64,000 bases of DNA, taken from the UHGV virus genome UHGV-0209617, one strand, 5' to 3'. A program made the translations under genes and the position numbers. Positions 10,497-19,601 of this stretch are shown one piece after another (within the stretch, counting starts at the first letter, position 1; every line of letters begins with the position of its first letter). The stretch is from a virus. The notes under the pieces are model-generated. The model saw only the letters and a program-made list of their open reading frames with translations, was not told the DNA's origin and did not search any database.

Positions 10497-10565
10497 CAAT
10501 ATAGGAGAAGGCGAATTTACTTCATAGGAAATGTTCTTATAGCTGTTGCCGTTGTACTATTGACT

Positions 10566-10574
10566 TGCTATAAT
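10566..10574 (+). promoter_or_regulatory. Extended -10 element (TGcTATAAT) upstream of Sel1/DUF6273-like gene
   Basis: TGCTATAAT at 10566-10574; only a weak -35 (TTGCCG) about 19 nt upstream. Confidence 0.3.
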
Positions 10575-10622
10575 TTAATAAATGACAATATTAATTTAAT
10601 GAAGATACGGAGATTTGAGCAT

Positions 10623-11441
10623 ATGGAAAAGAATCTTGATGAGGCTGTTAAATGGTTGCGTAAGGCAGCAGAGCTTGGGCATAAGGATGCAATGGTAAAG
10701 CTGGGCGAGCTACTCAGTGGTACAGAGGAGCCATTGACAAAACTATTGGAAAAATCATATATGGAAGGCTATGCAGATGGCAAAAATGGCAAGGCTAATA
10801 AATATTTCAAGGAAGCATATATTAAATCTACTATGGATAGAGCAGGTTTTGTTAATGTTAAGGTTGGAGATATAATCACATTTGGCAATTATTGGCAGGA
10901 TAAAGATAAGTCAGCTGGTAAGCAGCCAGTAGAGTGGCAGGTGCTTGATGTCAAGGATGGCAAGGCATTAGTTATTAGTAAATATGGTTTAATAAATCAT
11001 AAATATAATAAAGAATGGACGGATGTTACATGGGAAACATGTACCTTGAGAAAATGGCTGAATGATACCTTTATTAAGGATATTTTCTCCGCAGAGGAAA
11101 TGAAGGCTGTTATGTTATCAGATGTTAGTGCAGATAAAAATCCTAATTATAACACAAATCAGGGAAATGACACTAAGGATAAATTGTTCCTGCTGAGTAT
11201 AAAGGAAGTGGAGCAATATTTTGTTAGTGATGAAAAAAGACTGTGTAAGCCAACAGAATATGCAGTTAACAACGGAGCTTATGAGAATAACCGTGGGCAT
11301 AGTTGGTGGTGGCTACGCTCTGCTGGTGGCTATAGTAGCGATGCGGCGTATGTGGTCAGTTATGGCTGCGTCTACTACAGTGGCCGTAGTGTGTTCAGCG
11401 ACGATGGTTCTGTGCGCCCAGCTTTTTGGCTAAATCTTTAG
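10623..11441 (+). CDS. Sel1-like repeat plus DUF6273-like C-terminal domain protein
   Basis: ATG 10623 preceded by GGAG; N-terminus AVKWLRKAAELGHKDAMVKLGELL is Sel1/TPR-like; C-terminus WWWLRSAGGYSSDAAYVVSYGCVYYSGRSVFSDDGSVRPAFWL resembles DUF6273. Confidence 0.5.
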   Translation: MEKNLDEAVKWLRKAAELGHKDAMVKLGELLSGTEEPLTKLLEKSYMEGYADGKNGKANKYFKEAYIKSTMDRAGFVNVKVGDIITFGNYWQDKDKSAGKQPVEWQVLDVKDGKALVISKYGLINHKYNKEWTDVTWETCTLRKWLNDTFIKDIFSAEEMKAVMLSDVSADKNPNYNTNQGNDTKDKLFLLSIKEVEQYFVSDEKRLCKPTEYAVNNGAYENNRGHSWWWLRSAGGYSSDAAYVVSYGCVYYSGRSVFSDDGSVRPAFWLNL

Positions 11442-12350
11442 TCTAAAATCTTCAAATCTATGAATACGATAAGTGAAAAGTAGAAAAATAAAACAGGTAA
11501 TTTACCTGCGAAGCAGGGGTGAAATTTTTTAGGAGTATAGGCTGTGAAAAAAAGGTTAGCGAAACTTTTGTAAGCAGATTGCAGAATTTAAGTTTATCAG
11601 CCATAGAAAATCTGTATAGAGCCAATGATATATTTGTGCAGCGTGGCAATTTGAGTGCCTTGGAACTGACAGGCACTTTTAATGATAAATAGTAATGTTA
11701 AATAGCTGTATTATAAAGACAGCTAGAAACAATTTTTCAGCGGGGTAACATACTCAATAGGAAGCAAGAGTATGTTGCTCCGCTGATTTTTTAGTTTAGG
11801 TTGAGTATGTAGAACTGCTATTGGCAGGGGTGGGTATGTAGGGACAATGTGGTTCTGAAATAGTGAACATATCGAAGCTGAAAGGTACGTGGATATTGAG
11901 GTTAGGTAGATATGTTCAGTGCGAGCAGGTTGAATAGATATGAAAAGAAAATGCCCCAGACCGTGGTATTCCACTTCCTACAATAATTCAGTATGGCAGT
12001 GCCGTAACCGCTATTCAGCCGTGAAATGCAAGACCATGAATATCTATGACAAGCTGCTGTTTATGTCCTGCACGATGTGGCAAAGGACATACGGACAGCA
12101 ATAGTGGAATTCGCAGCAGATGTGGTCAGTGCTGACAGGCTGGCAGCCATTGAACGCTACATAGAGAACTTTGAAAGCATGAGTGCCTGGAAGATGCTTT
12201 CCAATGCAGATGACCTGTAATTCGTGATGAACATGGTTCTGGTCAAAACGGATAGGCGCATTGAGGTGATATGGTTGGACGGTGGTGTGGATGGATATGA
12301 AATTCCGAGGTATACACCGAAGGGGGGATAGAATGATTAGGTGTCTTTTT
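11442..12350. other. About 0.9 kb with no convincing gene; probable decayed coding remnants
   Basis: Only short, frame-switching ORFs; one 52-codon stretch (..VLHDVAKDIRTAIVEFAADVVSADRLAAIERYIENFESMSAWKML) looks protein-like but lacks a start. Confidence 0.3.
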
Positions 12351-12382
12351 AGCATTGTAAAAGTAATTACATTTACAATGCT
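12351..12382. repeat. 32 bp near-perfect palindrome, candidate operator
   Basis: AGCATTGTAAAAGTAATTACATTTACAATGCT has 11 bp perfect arms around a palindromic core; TTGTAAT and GTAATTACA recur at 12403-12425, overlapping the predicted -35. Confidence 0.7.
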
Positions 12383-12414
12383 AAAAAGATGTAGAAAATA
12401 TTTTGTAATAGGGA

Positions 12415-12443
12415 TTGTAATTACAGCTTAAATATGCTAAAAT
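12415..12443 (+). promoter_or_regulatory. Predicted sigma-A promoter of the RM operon
   Basis: -35 TTGTAA (12415-12420), 17 nt spacer, extended -10 TGcTAAAAT (12435-12443). Confidence 0.5.
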
Positions 12444-12688
12444 ATAAGATGAAAGACTATATGGAAATGGAGGAACTACAGTTGAGCGAAATGAAAAGAA
12501 AAATGCCTATGGAACATTTGAATATTGGTGAGTTCAACCGTGGGCAATCTTCAAAACTAATCCGTAACTTGGTGGAAAAAGATAATGCTGCATTTATACA
12601 AAAAAATGGGAAGCCAATAGCCGTTGTTATCTCCTATGAACGATACGAGAGACTGCTTGAGTCTGGCATTGATATCAATGAGTTCTGA
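12434..12688 (+). CDS. Phd/YefM-like small protein (antitoxin fold), putative regulator; start codon uncertain
   Basis: IGEFNRGQSSKLIRNLVEKDNAAFIQKNGKPIAVVISYERYERLLE matches the Phd/YefM pattern; no toxin gene follows; the listed ATG at 12434 overlaps the predicted -10, so the real start is probably TTG 12482 (GGAGG 8 nt upstream) or ATG 12491. Confidence 0.55.
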   Translation: MLKYKMKDYMEMEELQLSEMKRKMPMEHLNIGEFNRGQSSKLIRNLVEKDNAAFIQKNGKPIAVVISYERYERLLESGIDINEF

Positions 12689-12720
12689 GTATTCAAAACA
12701 TGATTAAGGAGGTAACGGAG

Positions 12721-14355
12721 ATGGTTGCGAAAAATTATGGTGTTGTTTACACACCGAATAGACTGGCTGAGTTCGCAGCAGAACTTTTATATAGAGAGGC
12801 AGCAGAAACTAATACAGAAATAAAGTCGGTATTGGATCCTGCGTGTGGCGAATGCGCATTGCTATGTGCTGCAAAGAAATATTTGAATGGTAATGTGAAA
12901 TATTTGGGAATTGATGTCGATAAAGAAGCAATAATGAATGTTGAGGATGATTTTGAAATTCTTTATAATGATTCAATTCTTCCGCGAAATGTAAAAAAAC
13001 AGACGGCAGAATATTGGAAGAGCAAGATGCCAGTAATATCTGCTATAATTGCAAATCCACCGTGGAGTTCCGAAAAAATATATGTGCGAGAAGAATTGCA
13101 GAGTGCCGGTTTCTCGTTGACCACAGGACAATATGATAGCTTTGTGCTATTTATTGAGTTGGCATATAATCTGCTTGATGATGGAGGATACTTTTCGTTT
13201 ATTATCCCCGATTCGTTATTTGATGCACAAAACGAAAAACTAAGAAGATTTTTGACTGAAAAGATGCAAATCAAAGTGATTGCCAGACTTGGAGAGAAGA
13301 TTTTTGAAGAAGTGAATAGAGCAACTACTGTTATTGTTTGCAGAAAAGAAAAGCCAGTCAAAGATTCTGTCACCCACTGTTTCAGACTTACTACGGAAGA
13401 AAGAAGAAAGTTTTTGAATTCGAATCAGAGTTTGTTAAACTTTTACAACGAAGATGTGCATGATGTGTTGCAGGGGCGATTTGCTGAAAACGCTGCCTGT
13501 AACTTTGACGTTGATACGCGCACTGATGAAGAGGCATTGTTGGCTAAAATTAAGAAGCAGTCTATAAGTTGGGAGGATATATTCATTTTTGGTCGAGGTG
13601 TTGAGATATCCAAAACAGGAAAGGTCGTATTTTGTCCTTCGTGTGGTTATGCCCAAGGGTATAAAAAATCACAAATGGCTGAAGGAAAAAAAGAATGTAC
13701 GAACTGTGGCAGTGAGATATCGGTTACTACGGCAAGTGTTCAAAATGTTATTTCACAAAGTCAAACGCCACAGACTGTTCAGATATATGTTGGAGAGAAT
13801 GTTCGGAGATATGGAATAACAGGAGAATGCTATATCAAACCCAACATTCCCGGAATCAATTATAAAAATCGTGCGATGTACAACCCACCAAAACTGTTGG
13901 TGAGAAAGACTGGACTTGGAATATATGCATCGATTGATTATACGGGAAGCATGACAAGTCAGGCTGTATATATTTTGAAATTTAAAAACAGTCAACATAA
14001 GGCTCCGTTGGAATATTATCTGGCATTGCTTAACTCACGAGTGGTCTACTATTTTTATTTGAAAGTATATGGAGAAAATGAATGGAAGTCCCATCCGTAC
14101 TTTACGAAACAGATTATTTATTCTCTGCCTATTAGAGAATATGAGGATAGTGAGTTAGATAAACAGATCATTAAAGTGGCATCGGAATTGGCGCATAAAT
14201 ATGAATATGTCAAGGATGTTCAGCTTGAGAAGTTGGTAATGAAAAAGTATGGTCTGTCAGAGACCGAAAGCAATATGGTTTATGGTGAGATGAATCGTCT
14301 GCCTGACTTGAGTGCGATTAACAATATGAAAGTTGAGGTGGAAGCGAATGTATAG
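12721..14355 (+). CDS. N6-adenine DNA methyltransferase, gamma class (Eco57I-like), with TaqI-like C-terminal target-recognition region and internal C4 zinc ribbon
   Basis: ATG 12721 with AAGGAGG 8 nt upstream; motifs GVVYTP, LDPACGECALL (AdoMet binding), IIANPPWSS (NPPW catalytic); internal CPSCGY..CTNCG. Confidence 0.85.
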   Translation: MVAKNYGVVYTPNRLAEFAAELLYREAAETNTEIKSVLDPACGECALLCAAKKYLNGNVKYLGIDVDKEAIMNVEDDFEILYNDSILPRNVKKQTAEYWKSKMPVISAIIANPPWSSEKIYVREELQSAGFSLTTGQYDSFVLFIELAYNLLDDGGYFSFIIPDSLFDAQNEKLRRFLTEKMQIKVIARLGEKIFEEVNRATTVIVCRKEKPVKDSVTHCFRLTTEERRKFLNSNQSLLNFYNEDVHDVLQGRFAENAACNFDVDTRTDEEALLAKIKKQSISWEDIFIFGRGVEISKTGKVVFCPSCGYAQGYKKSQMAEGKKECTNCGSEISVTTASVQNVISQSQTPQTVQIYVGENVRRYGITGECYIKPNIPGINYKNRAMYNPPKLLVRKTGLGIYASIDYTGSMTSQAVYILKFKNSQHKAPLEYYLALLNSRVVYYFYLKVYGENEWKSHPYFTKQIIYSLPIREYEDSELDKQIIKVASELAHKYEYVKDVQLEKLVMKKYGLSETESNMVYGEMNRLPDLSAINNMKVEVEANV

Positions 14356-15406
14356 ATATATAGGAAACAAATCAAAGCTGACTCCATACATTCTTGATAG
14401 GGTGGAACAGCTTATTGGAAAAACAGGAATTGTTGCTGACATTATGGCTGGAACAGGAACTGTGGCATTAGAATTGAGAAAAGCAGGTTATTCGGTTATC
14501 GCATCTGATGTAATGACCTATTCGTACCATCATTTGATGGTTAATCTTTGCTTAGATTCAGCTCCTTCTTTTTCTGGGCTTGTGAATCATGGAGCAATAG
14601 GCAAGAATGAGGTGGATGCATATGGTGCAATCCTGACTTATTTAAATTGCATTGAACCCAAAGAAGGTTTTTTCTTCAAGGAATTTTCTCCGGGTGGAAC
14701 ACCGCAGAATGGTTGCGACCCGAGAAAATATTTCACTACGGAAAATGCAAAGAAAATTGATGCGATTAGAGAAAAAATAAATGAGTGGATTGATAATGGA
14801 TATGTGAGCAAAGCTGAAGAATCGCTTTTAAAACATACTCTTATTATGGCAGTAAACGAGGTTGCCAATATATCTGGAACTTACGGATATTTTTTGGCTG
14901 ATTTCAAAAAGAATGCCAATGCACAGATTGATTTAAAACCTGTGGAATTTTGTTCTGTGAATTCAACTGGTCACATGGTAAAATTGGGATTTGCTGAAAA
15001 TTTAGCTGCAACAATTACAGTTGATTTGTGCTACATCGACCCTCCGTATATGAAGAGACAGTATGCTGCGAATTATCATATTCTGGAAACCATTGCACGA
15101 GGAGATTTCCCTGATGCTGTTGGTAAAAGTGGCTTGCGTGACTGGTGGGAGCAGCACTCTAAATTGTGTACCAAAACACGAGGATTACAATCGTTTGAAA
15201 AGATATTAGGTGATATGCATTGCCCGAAATTTCTGATTAGCTACAGTGAGGATGGTTTGTTTACGCTGGGGCAATTAGAAGAATGTTTTAGCAAGTTTGG
15301 AACTGTTGACGTTCAAGAAATTGATTACAATCGATTTAGAAGCAATGATAGCAAGTTGCCTAAAAAACTGAAGGAATATTTGATTTCTATAGAAAGGCAG
15401 GTATAA
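14348..15406 (+). CDS. DNA adenine methyltransferase, Dam-like (D12 class)
   Basis: ATG 14348 with AGGTGG upstream, overlapping the preceding stop by 8 nt; motifs RYIGNKSKL and DPPY. Confidence 0.8.
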   Translation: MYRYIGNKSKLTPYILDRVEQLIGKTGIVADIMAGTGTVALELRKAGYSVIASDVMTYSYHHLMVNLCLDSAPSFSGLVNHGAIGKNEVDAYGAILTYLNCIEPKEGFFFKEFSPGGTPQNGCDPRKYFTTENAKKIDAIREKINEWIDNGYVSKAEESLLKHTLIMAVNEVANISGTYGYFLADFKKNANAQIDLKPVEFCSVNSTGHMVKLGFAENLAATITVDLCYIDPPYMKRQYAANYHILETIARGDFPDAVGKSGLRDWWEQHSKLCTKTRGLQSFEKILGDMHCPKFLISYSEDGLFTLGQLEECFSKFGTVDVQEIDYNRFRSNDSKLPKKLKEYLISIERQV

Positions 15407-15410
15407 GTGA

Positions 15411-17081
15411 ATGGAGTGCATTGAAAGAATATTTTACAGAAAGATTAATCCTTCTGATTTCAAAAAGTTGTATGATATTGACAAACCAGAAGGTGGCGGT
15501 GGTCAGACATACTTGGAAGCCGCTGGTATTTCAAATGAAAAAATCGTTGATTTCCTTTCCTATGCGGAGGTTACAAACAGTCCTTTGCCAGATGAAACAA
15601 GGTCTGTTTATACATTCAATGCCTATGTTTTGGGCGATTCAAAGGGTAAATGTTCGTTTGTAGAATTTGCACCTCGCAAAGGAAGAAATAACTATCGTAT
15701 AAGCCGTCAGAACATGAAATATAAACATCCGGCATGGAGTTTGGATAATGGATTTCCCGAACCATCAAAAGGTGATGATGGCGAATACACATCTGCAGGC
15801 GATTTTGTGGGAATCATTGATAATCTTGTTATTCTTATCATAAGAACTACAAATCGGCGTTATTATGCAGGTTTTGTAAATATAGCGACAATGCCAGAGA
15901 ACTGGCCACACAATATTGGCTTAGAGGGCATTTTTAGTGGTGAACGCAGAGATGTACTAAAAATGGATGCGTATAAACTACAGTTTGTTAATGATGCCTG
16001 TAATCCATTCGGTGATTATGTCCCAACAATCGAAGAATGTAATCGAGCGACTACTGGTTGCAATGTGCTTTTGTACGGAGTTCCCGGAGCAGGAAAGAGT
16101 TGGACAATTGAACACGAATATTGTGCCGATGAAGGGTGTATGGAGCGATTGGTTTTCCATCCGGATTATATGTATTCGGATTTCGTTGGACAAATTTTGC
16201 CTGTAGTAAGGGACGATGACAAGGTTCGTTATGAGTTTACGCCGGGTCCGTTTACCAAATTATTAAAAAAAGCATATTGGAATACAGAACAGTCTTTTTA
16301 CCTTATAATAGAAGAAATAAATCGTGGTAATGCACCAGCGATATTCGGTGAAATATTTCAGCTTTTGGATAGAAAAGATGAAGACGAAATAGATGAAAAT
16401 AGGGAGATTCTCTACAAAAAAGGCACAAGTGAGTATGGAATAACAAATGCCAATATTGCACGAATCGTTTATGGCGATGAAAACCATAAGGTTCGAATTC
16501 CTGCAAATATGTCTATTTTGGGTACAATGAATACTTCTGACCAAAATGTTTTTACATTAGACACAGCATTTCAGAGAAGATGGATTATGAGAATGATTCC
16601 GAATTCATTTGATAACCATAAGTTCGCAGACAAGAAGATTTTGGATACTGATATTTCCTGGAGACAGTTCTGTGAAGCAATTAATGAGGAAATTTTGCGT
16701 AGAAACAACATCACATCTTCTGAGGATAAGCGACTTGGGGCATATTTTATCTCGGCTTCGGATTTGGAGATGAAACCAATCACAGACGGGATGAGCGAAA
16801 AAGAAAAAATCCAAGTGGAGCATAGCAACAGCAGATTTGCAGAAAAAGTATTGAAATATTTATGGGATGATGCTTTCAAATTTTCCCATCAAGATACATT
16901 TAACACAAGACAGTTTGGTAGTCTTGAAAAAGTTATCGAAGGCTTTATGAATCCTGCCAAGCCTAAAAATGAGCGTTTTCGTGTATTCAATGAGAACCTT
17001 CGTAAAATGATTTTGGATGGAGTAACAGCAGAATCAAACGAGGTTTCTGATGATGACAGCGAAGGCTCACAGGAATCTTAA
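15411..17081 (+). CDS. McrB-like GTPase subunit (LlaJI R1-like) with N-terminal DNA-recognition domain
   Basis: Walker A LLYGVPGAGKSW; McrB signature IIEEINRGNAPAIFGEIFQLLDR; TMNTSDQNVFTLDTAFQRRW; starts 4 nt after the second methyltransferase. Confidence 0.85.
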   Translation: MECIERIFYRKINPSDFKKLYDIDKPEGGGGQTYLEAAGISNEKIVDFLSYAEVTNSPLPDETRSVYTFNAYVLGDSKGKCSFVEFAPRKGRNNYRISRQNMKYKHPAWSLDNGFPEPSKGDDGEYTSAGDFVGIIDNLVILIIRTTNRRYYAGFVNIATMPENWPHNIGLEGIFSGERRDVLKMDAYKLQFVNDACNPFGDYVPTIEECNRATTGCNVLLYGVPGAGKSWTIEHEYCADEGCMERLVFHPDYMYSDFVGQILPVVRDDDKVRYEFTPGPFTKLLKKAYWNTEQSFYLIIEEINRGNAPAIFGEIFQLLDRKDEDEIDENREILYKKGTSEYGITNANIARIVYGDENHKVRIPANMSILGTMNTSDQNVFTLDTAFQRRWIMRMIPNSFDNHKFADKKILDTDISWRQFCEAINEEILRRNNITSSEDKRLGAYFISASDLEMKPITDGMSEKEKIQVEHSNSRFAEKVLKYLWDDAFKFSHQDTFNTRQFGSLEKVIEGFMNPAKPKNERFRVFNENLRKMILDGVTAESNEVSDDDSEGSQES

Positions 17082-17097: not shown

Positions 17098-18378
17098 TTG
17101 GATTTAGGCTTAAACTTAAAAGTTAAATGTCATGTGAATAAAAATGGTGATGGCGATAGGTTTGTCGGGATTAAGGCTGATGCTAATCAAGCAATGGTCT
17201 ATTTTCCAATGGGGTATCGCCTGCCAGACAATGAAGAAGATATTAGGGATGATATTCTAAAATTGATTTCTGTATTAGCTGAGTTTACGGATTCAAAAGA
17301 CAAGGTATTGGCTATGCAGAAATTTGAAGCACCACAGTCTGTGAATTTTCCAATCAATGCCTATATGAATATTATCCGATACTATTTGGAACAACGTTCA
17401 TATTACACAGAAAAGGATCCTATTCTAAAGACGAGTGACAGAGGAAAAATCGACTTTGCAGCATCTTTGCGTAGAAATGTTAGCTTTTTTCAAGAAGATG
17501 GAACTCCGTTTTTTGATAAATATACAGTAAAAGGGTCAACTCCTAATGATAAAAATTTAATAACTATGATTCACAAATACTGTGTGCATGAAAGTTTTGC
17601 TCAGATGGGTTGGCTGTTTATGCCGGATGTCCCACAAGATCCACATATTGAACGAAACATTCCGCTTTTCCTCAGTGTACTGAAGAAAAAATTGGCAGTC
17701 ACGCATCTTGAAAAGGATATTCTGCTATTTGAAGCAATGATTTCTATGCTGGAATATTTGGATGAGAAAAGTGACGATAAACAATACTATTTTGGAACAG
17801 ATAGATTTGAATATGTGTGGGAAAAACTGATAGATGCAGTGTTTGGCATAAAAGAAAAGAATGATTATTTTCCACGAACCTCTTGGAAACTAAACTATGG
17901 TGACCAACGAAGAAATTATGCATTAGAGCCGGACACCATAATGCTTTGTAATGGAAAAATCTATGTCATTGATGCAAAGTATTATAGATACGGTGTAACC
18001 GGTACACCTTCGCATTTGCCGGAATCATCATCTATCAACAAGCAGATTACATATGGTGAGTACATATATAATCATAAGAAATTTAAGGATGTATATGGTG
18101 ATGATGTTCCTGTGTATAACGCATTCCTTATGCCGTATAACAAACAGGATAATCCATTTCATATCAATGAGTATTTCGCCAATATTGGTGAGGCTGATAG
18201 TGACTGGAAATATGGCAATCATAATTATGAACGGGTGCAAGGAATTGTAGTTGATATTCGTTTCTTGATGAACAATTACTATGGTTCGCACAAGAGTAAA
18301 ATTATTAAGATGGCGAAGCTCATCGAGGAAGCCCTGCAGGAAAATGCAGATACGCTTCCAGAAGAAAAGACTGAATAA
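17098..18378 (+). CDS. McrC-like PD-(D/E)xK nuclease subunit (LlaJI R2-like)
   Basis: TTG start with GAGGTG 7 nt upstream, 16 nt after the McrB-like gene; IYVIDAKYY matches the McrC-type nuclease motif. Confidence 0.7.
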   Translation: MDLGLNLKVKCHVNKNGDGDRFVGIKADANQAMVYFPMGYRLPDNEEDIRDDILKLISVLAEFTDSKDKVLAMQKFEAPQSVNFPINAYMNIIRYYLEQRSYYTEKDPILKTSDRGKIDFAASLRRNVSFFQEDGTPFFDKYTVKGSTPNDKNLITMIHKYCVHESFAQMGWLFMPDVPQDPHIERNIPLFLSVLKKKLAVTHLEKDILLFEAMISMLEYLDEKSDDKQYYFGTDRFEYVWEKLIDAVFGIKEKNDYFPRTSWKLNYGDQRRNYALEPDTIMLCNGKIYVIDAKYYRYGVTGTPSHLPESSSINKQITYGEYIYNHKKFKDVYGDDVPVYNAFLMPYNKQDNPFHINEYFANIGEADSDWKYGNHNYERVQGIVVDIRFLMNNYYGSHKSKIIKMAKLIEEALQENADTLPEEKTE

Positions 18379-18418
18379 AAAATCCGCAAGCAGTGATTAT
18401 GCTGTTTGCGGATTTTTT
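18377..18418. terminator. Bidirectional intrinsic terminator between convergent genes
   Basis: AAAAAATCCGCAAGCAG..CTGTTTGCGGATTTTTT, about 15 bp stem with one mismatch, A-run and T-run on either side. Confidence 0.6.
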
Positions 18419-19601
18419 ATTTGCCCTTTTGAACTTTGATGCGATGGGAACGTTGATTATTTGCGTTTCTACAGTTACTGCAACAATATTTATTTCTACT
18501 ATTGGATGTCTTTACTAAGAAATATTTATGGCAAGAAGGATTGGCACACTTTCTATATATTTCAGATCCGGGTTTCATGTAGAAAATAGAAAAATATAAT
18601 GCAGAAAGCAATGATGGTGCCTTCCACGACGGTTCCAGTGAATTGGGACTGTAGAAAGGTTTTATACTTCTGGTATTATGATTTATTTCCCCACTTAAAA
18701 CGAGTCGTGCGATAAGAGTAGCAGCCTCTTTTAATGGACTGTTAAATTTGCTGAAATCTGGACTACTATAGTATTCAATGCCGCCCTCGAAAGTTACAGC
18801 TTTTATTACACCAACAGAATGCATATAGTGAAACAGGAATTCAACCATTAGTCGGAGCTTCTTGGATTGAATATTGTTATTCTTGTAAGCAATAGTAACC
18901 TGGCGATACAGCGTATCATTAATTCCAGGATAATCGTATGTAAATGTTTCTCCGTTTGAAATATCATCATATTCATCAGCATTTAATTCATATGAAGGAG
19001 CATAAATCATGTCTTTTACGGTAATAGATTCTGTTTCAGAGGATTGCTGTAGTGAATCGATAGAGGCTTGATTTCTGATGCTATCATGAAATGGATGCCG
19101 ATAGGTTGAATAAGTAATTCGTGCAGTGCCATTAAGCGTAACTTGTGTCCCAAGAAGCAAATACAAAGTTAAATGTAGAATCTGTTCATAATCAAGTGAT
19201 GGTTTTTCCACTGCGGCCATAAGGAGAACTGTAGCCTTTATTCGATTCAAGACTTCTACAAGCGCTACTATATCAATTTCCGTTCCTTCGGGCGAAATAG
19301 GAAGTAGATAACCATGTTCCTCGAAAAAACCAAGGACCTTTTTTACATTGGTTGCCGGAAGCGATATCAGAGAACCGAGAACATTTTTATTTTGAAGTGA
19401 ACCGTGTGGAGTCGTTAAACATAAACCTCGGCTTCCGCTAAAGGCATAATTTATAATTTCATCATTCACGGGATAGACTGTTAATATTTTATGCGCCTGC
19501 CCGTCCGTCTTTAAGACTTCTTCTATTCTAAATGTACATTTTTTGCAACTCAAAGAAAAATAATCGTTGCTAAGATTGAAAAAATTGTCTAACTCAGTCA
19601 T
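18417..19601 (-). CDS. Hypothetical protein with C-terminal CGNR-type zinc finger
   Basis: 394 aa; C-terminus CANPSCHKYFLVKTSNSRNKYCCSNCRNANNQRSHR fits the CGNR zinc-finger pattern; N-terminal 330 aa unrecognised. Confidence 0.5.
   Translation of the reverse strand: MTELDNFFNLSNDYFSLSCKKCTFRIEEVLKTDGQAHKILTVYPVNDEIINYAFSGSRGLCLTTPHGSLQNKNVLGSLISLPATNVKKVLGFFEEHGYLLPISPEGTEIDIVALVEVLNRIKATVLLMAAVEKPSLDYEQILHLTLYLLLGTQVTLNGTARITYSTYRHPFHDSIRNQASIDSLQQSSETESITVKDMIYAPSYELNADEYDDISNGETFTYDYPGINDTLYRQVTIAYKNNNIQSKKLRLMVEFLFHYMHSVGVIKAVTFEGGIEYYSSPDFSKFNSPLKEAATLIARLVLSGEINHNTRSIKPFYSPNSLEPSWKAPSLLSALYFSIFYMKPGSEIYRKCANPSCHKYFLVKTSNSRNKYCCSNCRNANNQRSHRIKVQKGK

Follow-up and report, generated by a model that had tools for sequence, protein, structure and literature searches.

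What is a four-cysteine motif resembling a zinc ribbon doing in the middle of a DNA methyltransferase carried by a prophage? This question is raised by a gene, here called M1, of the UHGV virus genome UHGV-0209617, of which a stretch of 64,000 nucleotides (hereafter, the window) has been analyzed. M1 belongs to an operon of five genes that encode a small Phd/YefM-like open reading frame (ORF) product, the methyltransferases M1 and M2, and the restriction subunits R1 and R2. An earlier note, made from the sequence alone, had described a probable zinc ribbon in M1 and regarded it as an unusual insertion that might contribute to DNA recognition or to the interaction with the McrBC-like subunits.

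A putative zinc ribbon in the M1 methyltransferase

The M1 gene (12721..14355, + strand) encodes a putative gamma-class N6-adenine DNA methyltransferase of 544 amino acids with a TaqI-like recognition region. The ORF is open throughout from 12700 to 14355 (+), and an alternative ATG at 12700 would yield a protein of 551 amino acids. The ATG at 12721 is the likely true start, because a GGAGG sequence is located at the right spacing, 8 nucleotides upstream, and because 544 amino acids is the modal length of the homologues. The residue numbers used here are those of the 551-residue ORF, and 7 has to be subtracted to obtain the numbering of the 544-residue protein. The translation contains the S-adenosylmethionine-binding motif I, DPACGEC (12835..12855, +; residues 46-52), followed by the catalytic motif IV, NPPW (13054..13065, +; residues 119-122), and by a C-terminal recognition domain, i.e., the linear order of the gamma class. 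In Pfam, M1 matches N6_Mtase (E=2.6e-20, residues 2-225, 73.4 bits vs a cut-off of 20.4), Eco57I (E=1.1e-16, 61.9 bits vs a cut-off of 25.3), and TaqI_C (PF12950, E=5.1e-14, 53 bits vs a cut-off of 26.5), the latter covering part of the target-recognition domain (13780..14133, +; residues 361-478). The motif order and these three matches are in agreement with the class and the recognition region that the earlier note had assigned to the protein. The precomputed Pfam annotation of the homologues contains the same three families and nothing more, and no full-length model of M1 was found in PADLOC or NCBIfam, where the catalytic half alone was matched.

The four cysteines (C312, codon 13633-35; C315, 13642-44; C333, 13696-98; and C336, 13705-07) form the motif CPSC-x17-CTNC (13633..13707, +), and the whole module, including the flanking strands, extends over about 13621-13725. 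C315 and C333 are separated by 17 residues, and 'CPSCGY' and 'CTNCG' by 15, not far from the gap of about 18 first reported. An AlphaFold2 model of M1 based on a 40-sequence alignment has a mean predicted local distance difference test (pLDDT) score of 85.6 and a predicted template modelling (pTM) score of 0.80. The structure prediction, which had been proposed as a check, yielded a confident two-knuckle ribbon, with a pLDDT of 93-95 for the segment 311-340 and the layout strand, knuckle, short helix, strand, knuckle, strand (strands 308-311, 330-332, and 339-341; helix 323-328). The isolated segment matched some 20 zinc-ribbon families of Pfam, all under the curated thresholds. The highest score was 23.9 bits, for Zn_Ribbon_1 (cut-off 25), and a distant member of the M1 family scored 24.3 bits against Zn_ribbon_RPB9 (cut-off 25.2). 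Short ribbons often score under profile thresholds. The weak sequence matches of the segment in the PDB were to small zinc-ribbon proteins only. Like the generic Cys4 ribbons (Zn_Ribbon_1, Zn_ribbon_RPB9, and TFIIB-type), that of M1 has two CxxC knuckles on beta-hairpins within ~25-35 residues, but it is inserted within an enzyme domain and is not a terminal module. Together, the invariant cysteines, the predicted two-knuckle beta structure, and the sub-threshold profile matches support the proposal that the C312/C315/C333/C336 motif behaves as a true zinc ribbon, which is predicted to bind zinc.

Lack of conservation of the cysteines in orthologues had been named in advance as the observation that would speak against a ribbon. 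We have found all four of them in the 121 homologues that share at least 61% identity with M1, in 86 of 86 genomic loci, and in 312 of 312 distinct full-span sequences of the family, down to 22-35% identity, from Bacillota, Bacteroidota, Acidobacteriota, candidate phyla radiation (CPR) bacteria, Alphaproteobacteria, and archaea. In an alignment of 151 rows, comprised of the query and 150 representatives of clusters at 50% identity, each cysteine is present in 145-147 rows, the remainder being gaps in fragments and one misaligned fragment; every cluster representative that spans the region has the cysteines, down to about 31% identity. They are kept even in haloarchaeal fusions of about 1090 amino acids that are 22-25% identical to M1, and in a few members one knuckle is CxC instead of CxxC. 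A further alignment (A2) of 50 sequences has a mean column identity of 38% and just 34 invariant columns, which include D46 and G50 of motif I, the catalytic N119, P120, P121, and W122, the four cysteines, and R299, G300, E302, and G307. The last four residues belong to a loop, RGVEISKTG (13594..13620, +), that directly precedes the ribbon, and thus 8 of the 34 invariant columns fall inside 42 residues. Given these invariant columns and the conservation of the cysteines, few parts of the enzyme are, as judged from the alignments, as constrained as the ribbon and its preceding loop.

When 1.84 billion cluster representatives were searched exhaustively with HMMER, 257 clusters were retrieved at E<=1e-30, and among the best 150 of these 257 clusters all those covering the region carry the ribbon. 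The bacterial hosts include Bacillota, Spirochaetota, Actinomycetota, Bacteroidota, Acidobacteriota, Chloroflexota, CPR bacteria, Alphaproteobacteria, and Enterobacteriaceae, and the archaeal hosts include DPANN and halophilic archaea. Since it is found across bacterial phyla and archaea, the ribbon is not confined to one lineage; rather than a peculiarity of the window gene, it appears to characterize a large, widespread, and uncurated family. It is an insertion relative to every solved relative, but the earlier note's description of it as unusual has to be corrected. No Pfam or NCBIfam model includes the ribbon, and in the open-access literature searched, we did not find it described in methyltransferases of this kind. 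Neither a named REBASE enzyme nor a recognition sequence was found for any member of the family.

Position of the ribbon and its possible role

The closest solved structures to M1 found with Foldseek are M.BseCI, CamA, and M.TaqI (top matches, E from 3e-24 to 1e-18), and BrxX/PglX was also matched. M.BseCI, CamA, and M.TaqI share with M1 the two-domain architecture, the NPPW/NPPY catalysis, and the TaqI_C fold, but they are only 15-18% identical to it. The profile matches of CamA to M1 span both the catalytic and the recognition domains, whereas those of M.BseCI consist of two separate stretches, the catalytic domain and the C-terminal part of the recognition domain. The four cysteines were not seen in the aligned region of M.BseCI, CamA, M.TaqI, or PglX, and CamA contains 'GIITGCDKAFILSKDDVKLNLVDDKFLK' at the place of the ribbon. 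The match of M1 to solved Type IIG/IIL enzymes and their relatives (7lo5, BpuSI 3s1s, and PglX) is confined to the catalytic domain and does not extend to the ribbon.

Both HMMER and hhalign align G307 of M1 with G347 of CamA (hhalign probability 90.5%), so that 'RGVEISK-x-G307-x-V309' faces 'ISF-Q346-G-I-I349-TG' of CamA. In the structure of CamA bound to DNA, Gln346 hydrogen-bonds the adenine A3, and Ile349 packs on A3:T3 in the major groove (PMC8187626). The loop RGVEISKTG would be the equivalent of this Gln346/Ile349 loop. Cys312 is located three residues past the aligned segment, and residues 312-361, i.e., the ribbon and its tail, stand in for about 20 residues of CamA (352-374), after which the alignments rejoin at 'VGENVRRY', which corresponds to 'KSKNINKY' of CamA. 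According to this mapping, the ribbon is an insert within the recognition domain and follows the first conserved loop of that domain. The position first proposed, between the catalytic domain and the TaqI-like region, is therefore correct with respect to NPPW and the Pfam TaqI_C match, but structurally the ribbon would lie inside the recognition domain and not in a linker before it. Its net charge per residue is +0.11 compared with +0.013 for the rest of the protein, and the ribbon exceeds the rest of the protein in charge in 88% of 205 distinct ribbons.

The explanation that we favour, with moderate confidence, is that the ribbon has a structural role: as a zinc module, it would brace a loop through which the M1 recognition domain contacts DNA. 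In this view, the prophage carries a LlaJI-type (McrBC-like) restriction-modification operon with two protective methyltransferases, one for each strand; M1 would be one of the two, and the ribbon would be built into the N-terminal part of its TaqI-like recognition domain, replacing the short helical connector of CamA. A tetrahedral zinc site would keep the invariant loop just before it, R299-G300-x-E302-x4-G307, rigid and correctly oriented, and the basic surface of the ribbon would be set against the DNA backbone beside the recognition site. A contribution of the ribbon to DNA binding or recognition, as the earlier note had suggested, is plausible from the homology mapping onto CamA and from the positive net charge; its proximity to DNA, and any share that it may have in specificity, are deduced from the same comparisons.

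Several observations weigh against this explanation. The alignment with CamA has about 20% identity, and an alternative register, in which G300 is paired with G347 of CamA, is conceivable and would move the equivalent of the CamA loop by 7 residues, although the first knuckle would be within about a dozen residues of the CamA-like loop under either register. The positive charge of the ribbon is modest. Within the close clade, the loop between the knuckles shows no higher conservation than the remainder of M1, and the difference observed in this loop from clade to clade, AQGY[KS]KxQ vs WxPxP[RK], is compatible with either a tuning of specificity or plain drift.

A bolder proposal, which we put forward only tentatively, is that the ribbon-bearing domain represents a distinct, undescribed class of target-recognition domain, whose zinc module and invariant R-G-x-E loop would together recognize a portion of the target or dictate strand choice. 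M1 and M2 would then constitute an ancient portable cassette for asymmetric sites, to which B3-like readers on three nuclease engines (a McrBC-type motor, PD-(D/E)XK, and HNH) would have been repeatedly attached. A related possibility, which we regard as rather unlikely, is that the ribbon goes beyond a structural brace, reading bases itself and setting the specificity. It adjoins the equivalent of the base-reading loop of CamA, it is positively charged, and its inter-knuckle loop is clade-specific; however, this loop follows the phylogeny, and most base contacts in CamA and M.TaqI come from later loops of the recognition domain (PMC8187626).

Partner genes and the remaining alternatives

The M2 gene (14348..15406, +) encodes a putative D12-class (alpha) N6-adenine methyltransferase (Pfam MethyltransfD12, E=3.5e-27). 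Its ATG overlaps the stop codon of M1 at 14348-14355 (ATGTATAG), and its Shine-Dalgarno sequence, GAGGTGGA, is located within the M1 coding sequence, suggesting that both genes are translationally coupled. In 79 of the 86 loci, from different phyla and also from archaea, the gene immediately downstream of M1 encodes an M2 homologue, and in three of the seven exceptions the contig or locus ends before or just after the end of M1. This constant association, together with the gene overlap, which suggests a coupled and stoichiometric production, would fit a ribbon that mediates the formation of an M1-M2 heterodimer, a single complex methylating both strands of an asymmetric site. Nevertheless, M2 is missing beside the ribbon-bearing fusions of loci L006, L088, and L089 and the apparent orphan of L067, it is replaced by an unrelated methyltransferase in L062, and no data place the ribbon at an interface, and thus we give little weight to this possibility.

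The exchange in L062, a metagenome-assembled genome of Dehalococcoidia, consists of an unrelated DPPW (MT-A70-like) methyltransferase of 239 amino acids (L062:9651-10367) in the place of M2, so the second methyltransferase has been swapped in this locus. The DPPW gene is followed by a McrB-like gene and then by an ORF in the McrC position (12159-13478).

The McrBC-like neighbours of M1 that the earlier note had mentioned are real. The R1 gene (15411..17081, +) encodes a McrB-like AAA+ subunit (AAA_5, E=1.5e-11 in Pfam; McrB, E=2.2e-16 in NCBIfam), whose N-terminal part (15411..16040, +) is predicted to be a B3-like DNA-binding domain according to an AlphaFold2 model (pLDDT 86.9) and Foldseek; the top eleven Foldseek matches of this domain are BfiI, UbaLAI, and plant B3 domains, with marginal E values from 1e-3 to 5e-2. 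The R2 gene (17098..18378, +) encodes a LlaJI-type (McrC-like) nuclease subunit (RE_LlaJI, PF09563, E=2.1e-28, 100 bits vs a cut-off of 23.6) that also gives a full-length match to the PADLOC REase_II model PDLC03549 (E=1.6e-138).

The LlaJI-type R1/R2 partner is characteristic of the window and its closer relatives, and other loci present different partners. In L020-L035, a convergent gene encodes a partner of ~420 amino acids comprised of the N-terminal 200 residues of the R1 type and a NOV_C PD-(D/E)XK domain. In L081, L086, and L087, for example, the partner is also convergent, has ~350-400 amino acids, and carries the same N-terminal domain and an HNH motif; L087 is the Roseobacter plasmid pROLI18. 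Overall, the R1-type B3-like domain (~200 residues) was observed beside the pair of ribbon-bearing M1 and D12-class M2 in L020-L035, L053, L061, L066, L081, L086, and L087. One predicted B3-like reader is combined, according to these models, with three nuclease engines (McrBC-type, NOV_C, and HNH).

Some ribbon-bearing members resemble the MmeI-like Type IIG/IIL enzymes, being single chains of 970-1094 amino acids with MmeI_N, MmeI_Mtase, Eco57I, and TaqI_C signatures, unlike M1, which has no nuclease domain. The Type IIG-like fusions of L006, L088, and L089 have neither M2 nor McrB/McrC nearby, and L067 contains an apparent orphan ribbon-bearing M1. The loci L088 and L089, from plasmids of Natrinema and Halorientalis, encode methyltransferases of ~1090 amino acids (L088:3225-6509 and L089:3231-6506) with the ribbon and an RGVELNKAG loop, followed in both cases by genes for a PD-(D/E)XK nuclease and a helicase, and they may represent an uncharacterised archaeal defence arrangement.

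These findings bear directly on the other role anticipated for the ribbon in the earlier note, that of a docking module for the McrB/McrC-like R1 and R2 that would couple modification to restriction. It is true that M1 is co-operonic with an AAA_5 protein in the window and in about 25 related loci, many of which also contain a recognisable RE_LlaJI. However, the same ribbon occurs beside the B3-like partners with NOV_C or HNH nucleases, in the fusions that lack McrB/McrC, and in the apparent orphan, and the cysteines and the preceding loop are invariant in all these contexts. The presence of the ribbon does not depend on which restriction partner accompanies M1, nor strictly on M2, and, since it is found with other nucleases, in fusions, and in an apparent orphan, the ribbon is not an adaptation to McrBC-like subunits. 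The docking proposal is largely refuted by this distribution, and we consider it very improbable. Finally, although all the Pfam zinc-ribbon matches are under their curated cut-offs, the least probable option is that the cysteines arose by chance or are not metal ligands (they might, for example, form disulfides or be a degenerate relic), given that only 282 of 200,000 shuffled versions of the M1 sequence contained a CxxC-x8-40-CxxC pattern (p about 0.0014), that the predicted knuckle geometry is confident, that structural disulfides are unlikely in cytoplasmic proteins of anaerobes, and that a chance origin is untenable for cysteines as conserved as the catalytic NPPW.

The operon, its prophage setting, and its significance

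The first gene of the operon is the small Phd/YefM-like ORF (12482..12688, +), which matches PhdYeFM_antitox of Pfam with E=1.7e-6, under the curated cut-off. The maximal ORF begins at 12434, the likely start being around 12482-12491. A homologous small ORF is found in the same position upstream of M1 in L001-L003, L023-L029, and L046, and its product may be a controller or regulator of the operon and not an antitoxin. Acutalibacter muris has the same operon layout, and so do many other Bacillota.

The window is a prophage, and the restriction-modification operon is a cargo module on its left side. The region 20000-58000 contains genes for a DUF2800/PD-(D/E)XK protein, PolA (family A DNA polymerase), a VapE-like primase, and a SNF2 helicase, as well as those for the large terminase, the portal, the major capsid, and tail proteins. 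On the left of the operon there are two paralogous small proteins with signal-peptide-like N-termini (7390-8016 and 8118-8690, both +) and a Sel1/DUF6273 protein (10560-11441, +), and on its right a 394-amino acid protein (18417-19601, - strand) with a weak C-terminal match to the CGNR zinc finger. M1 is also present in five IMG/VR viral contigs, being 98% identical in four of them (L090-L092 and L096) and 89% identical in the other (L093). A protein search of 50,697 GenBank phage records did not reveal any relative of M1, and nucleotide searches with the operon against the PLSDB plasmids and GenBank phages gave no match.

Among the known systems closest to the operon is LlaJI, from the Lactococcus plasmid pNP40 and with a homologue in H. 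pylori, which likewise has four genes in the order M1-M2-R1-R2. Its R1 is an NTPase of the McrB type that reads the sequence through an N-terminal domain, whereas the nuclease is R2 (PMC1459862). According to a work cited in PMC7680126, the N-terminal domain of LlaJI.R1 from H. pylori is B3-like, as predicted here for R1 of the window. Nevertheless, both LlaJI methyltransferases are 5-methylcytosine enzymes (PMC1459862), whereas the two co-oriented methyltransferase genes located upstream of R1/R2 in the window are of the N6-methyladenine type by family, one gamma-class and the other D12-class. LlaJI itself lacks a counterpart of the ribbon-bearing M1, and M1 also differs in its context from CamA, which is an orphan enzyme, whereas M1 is part of a restriction operon.

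The ribbon is a modest, uncurated variation on a known kind of enzyme, and its description is an incremental refinement that does not overturn current understanding. The ribbon and the RGxExxKxG loop provide a simple diagnostic signature for a large family that is now labelled in Pfam and NCBIfam only as 'N-6 DNA methylase' and that deserves a profile of its own. None of the matched solved relatives has a metal site aligned at the ribbon position of the recognition domain, and the ribbon thereby raises a mechanistic question about the use of zinc modules in target recognition by methyltransferases. The combination of one conserved methyltransferase pair with three restriction engines that share a B3-like reader is a clear case of modular exchange, and such an exchange is a potential source of new Type IIS-like specificities.

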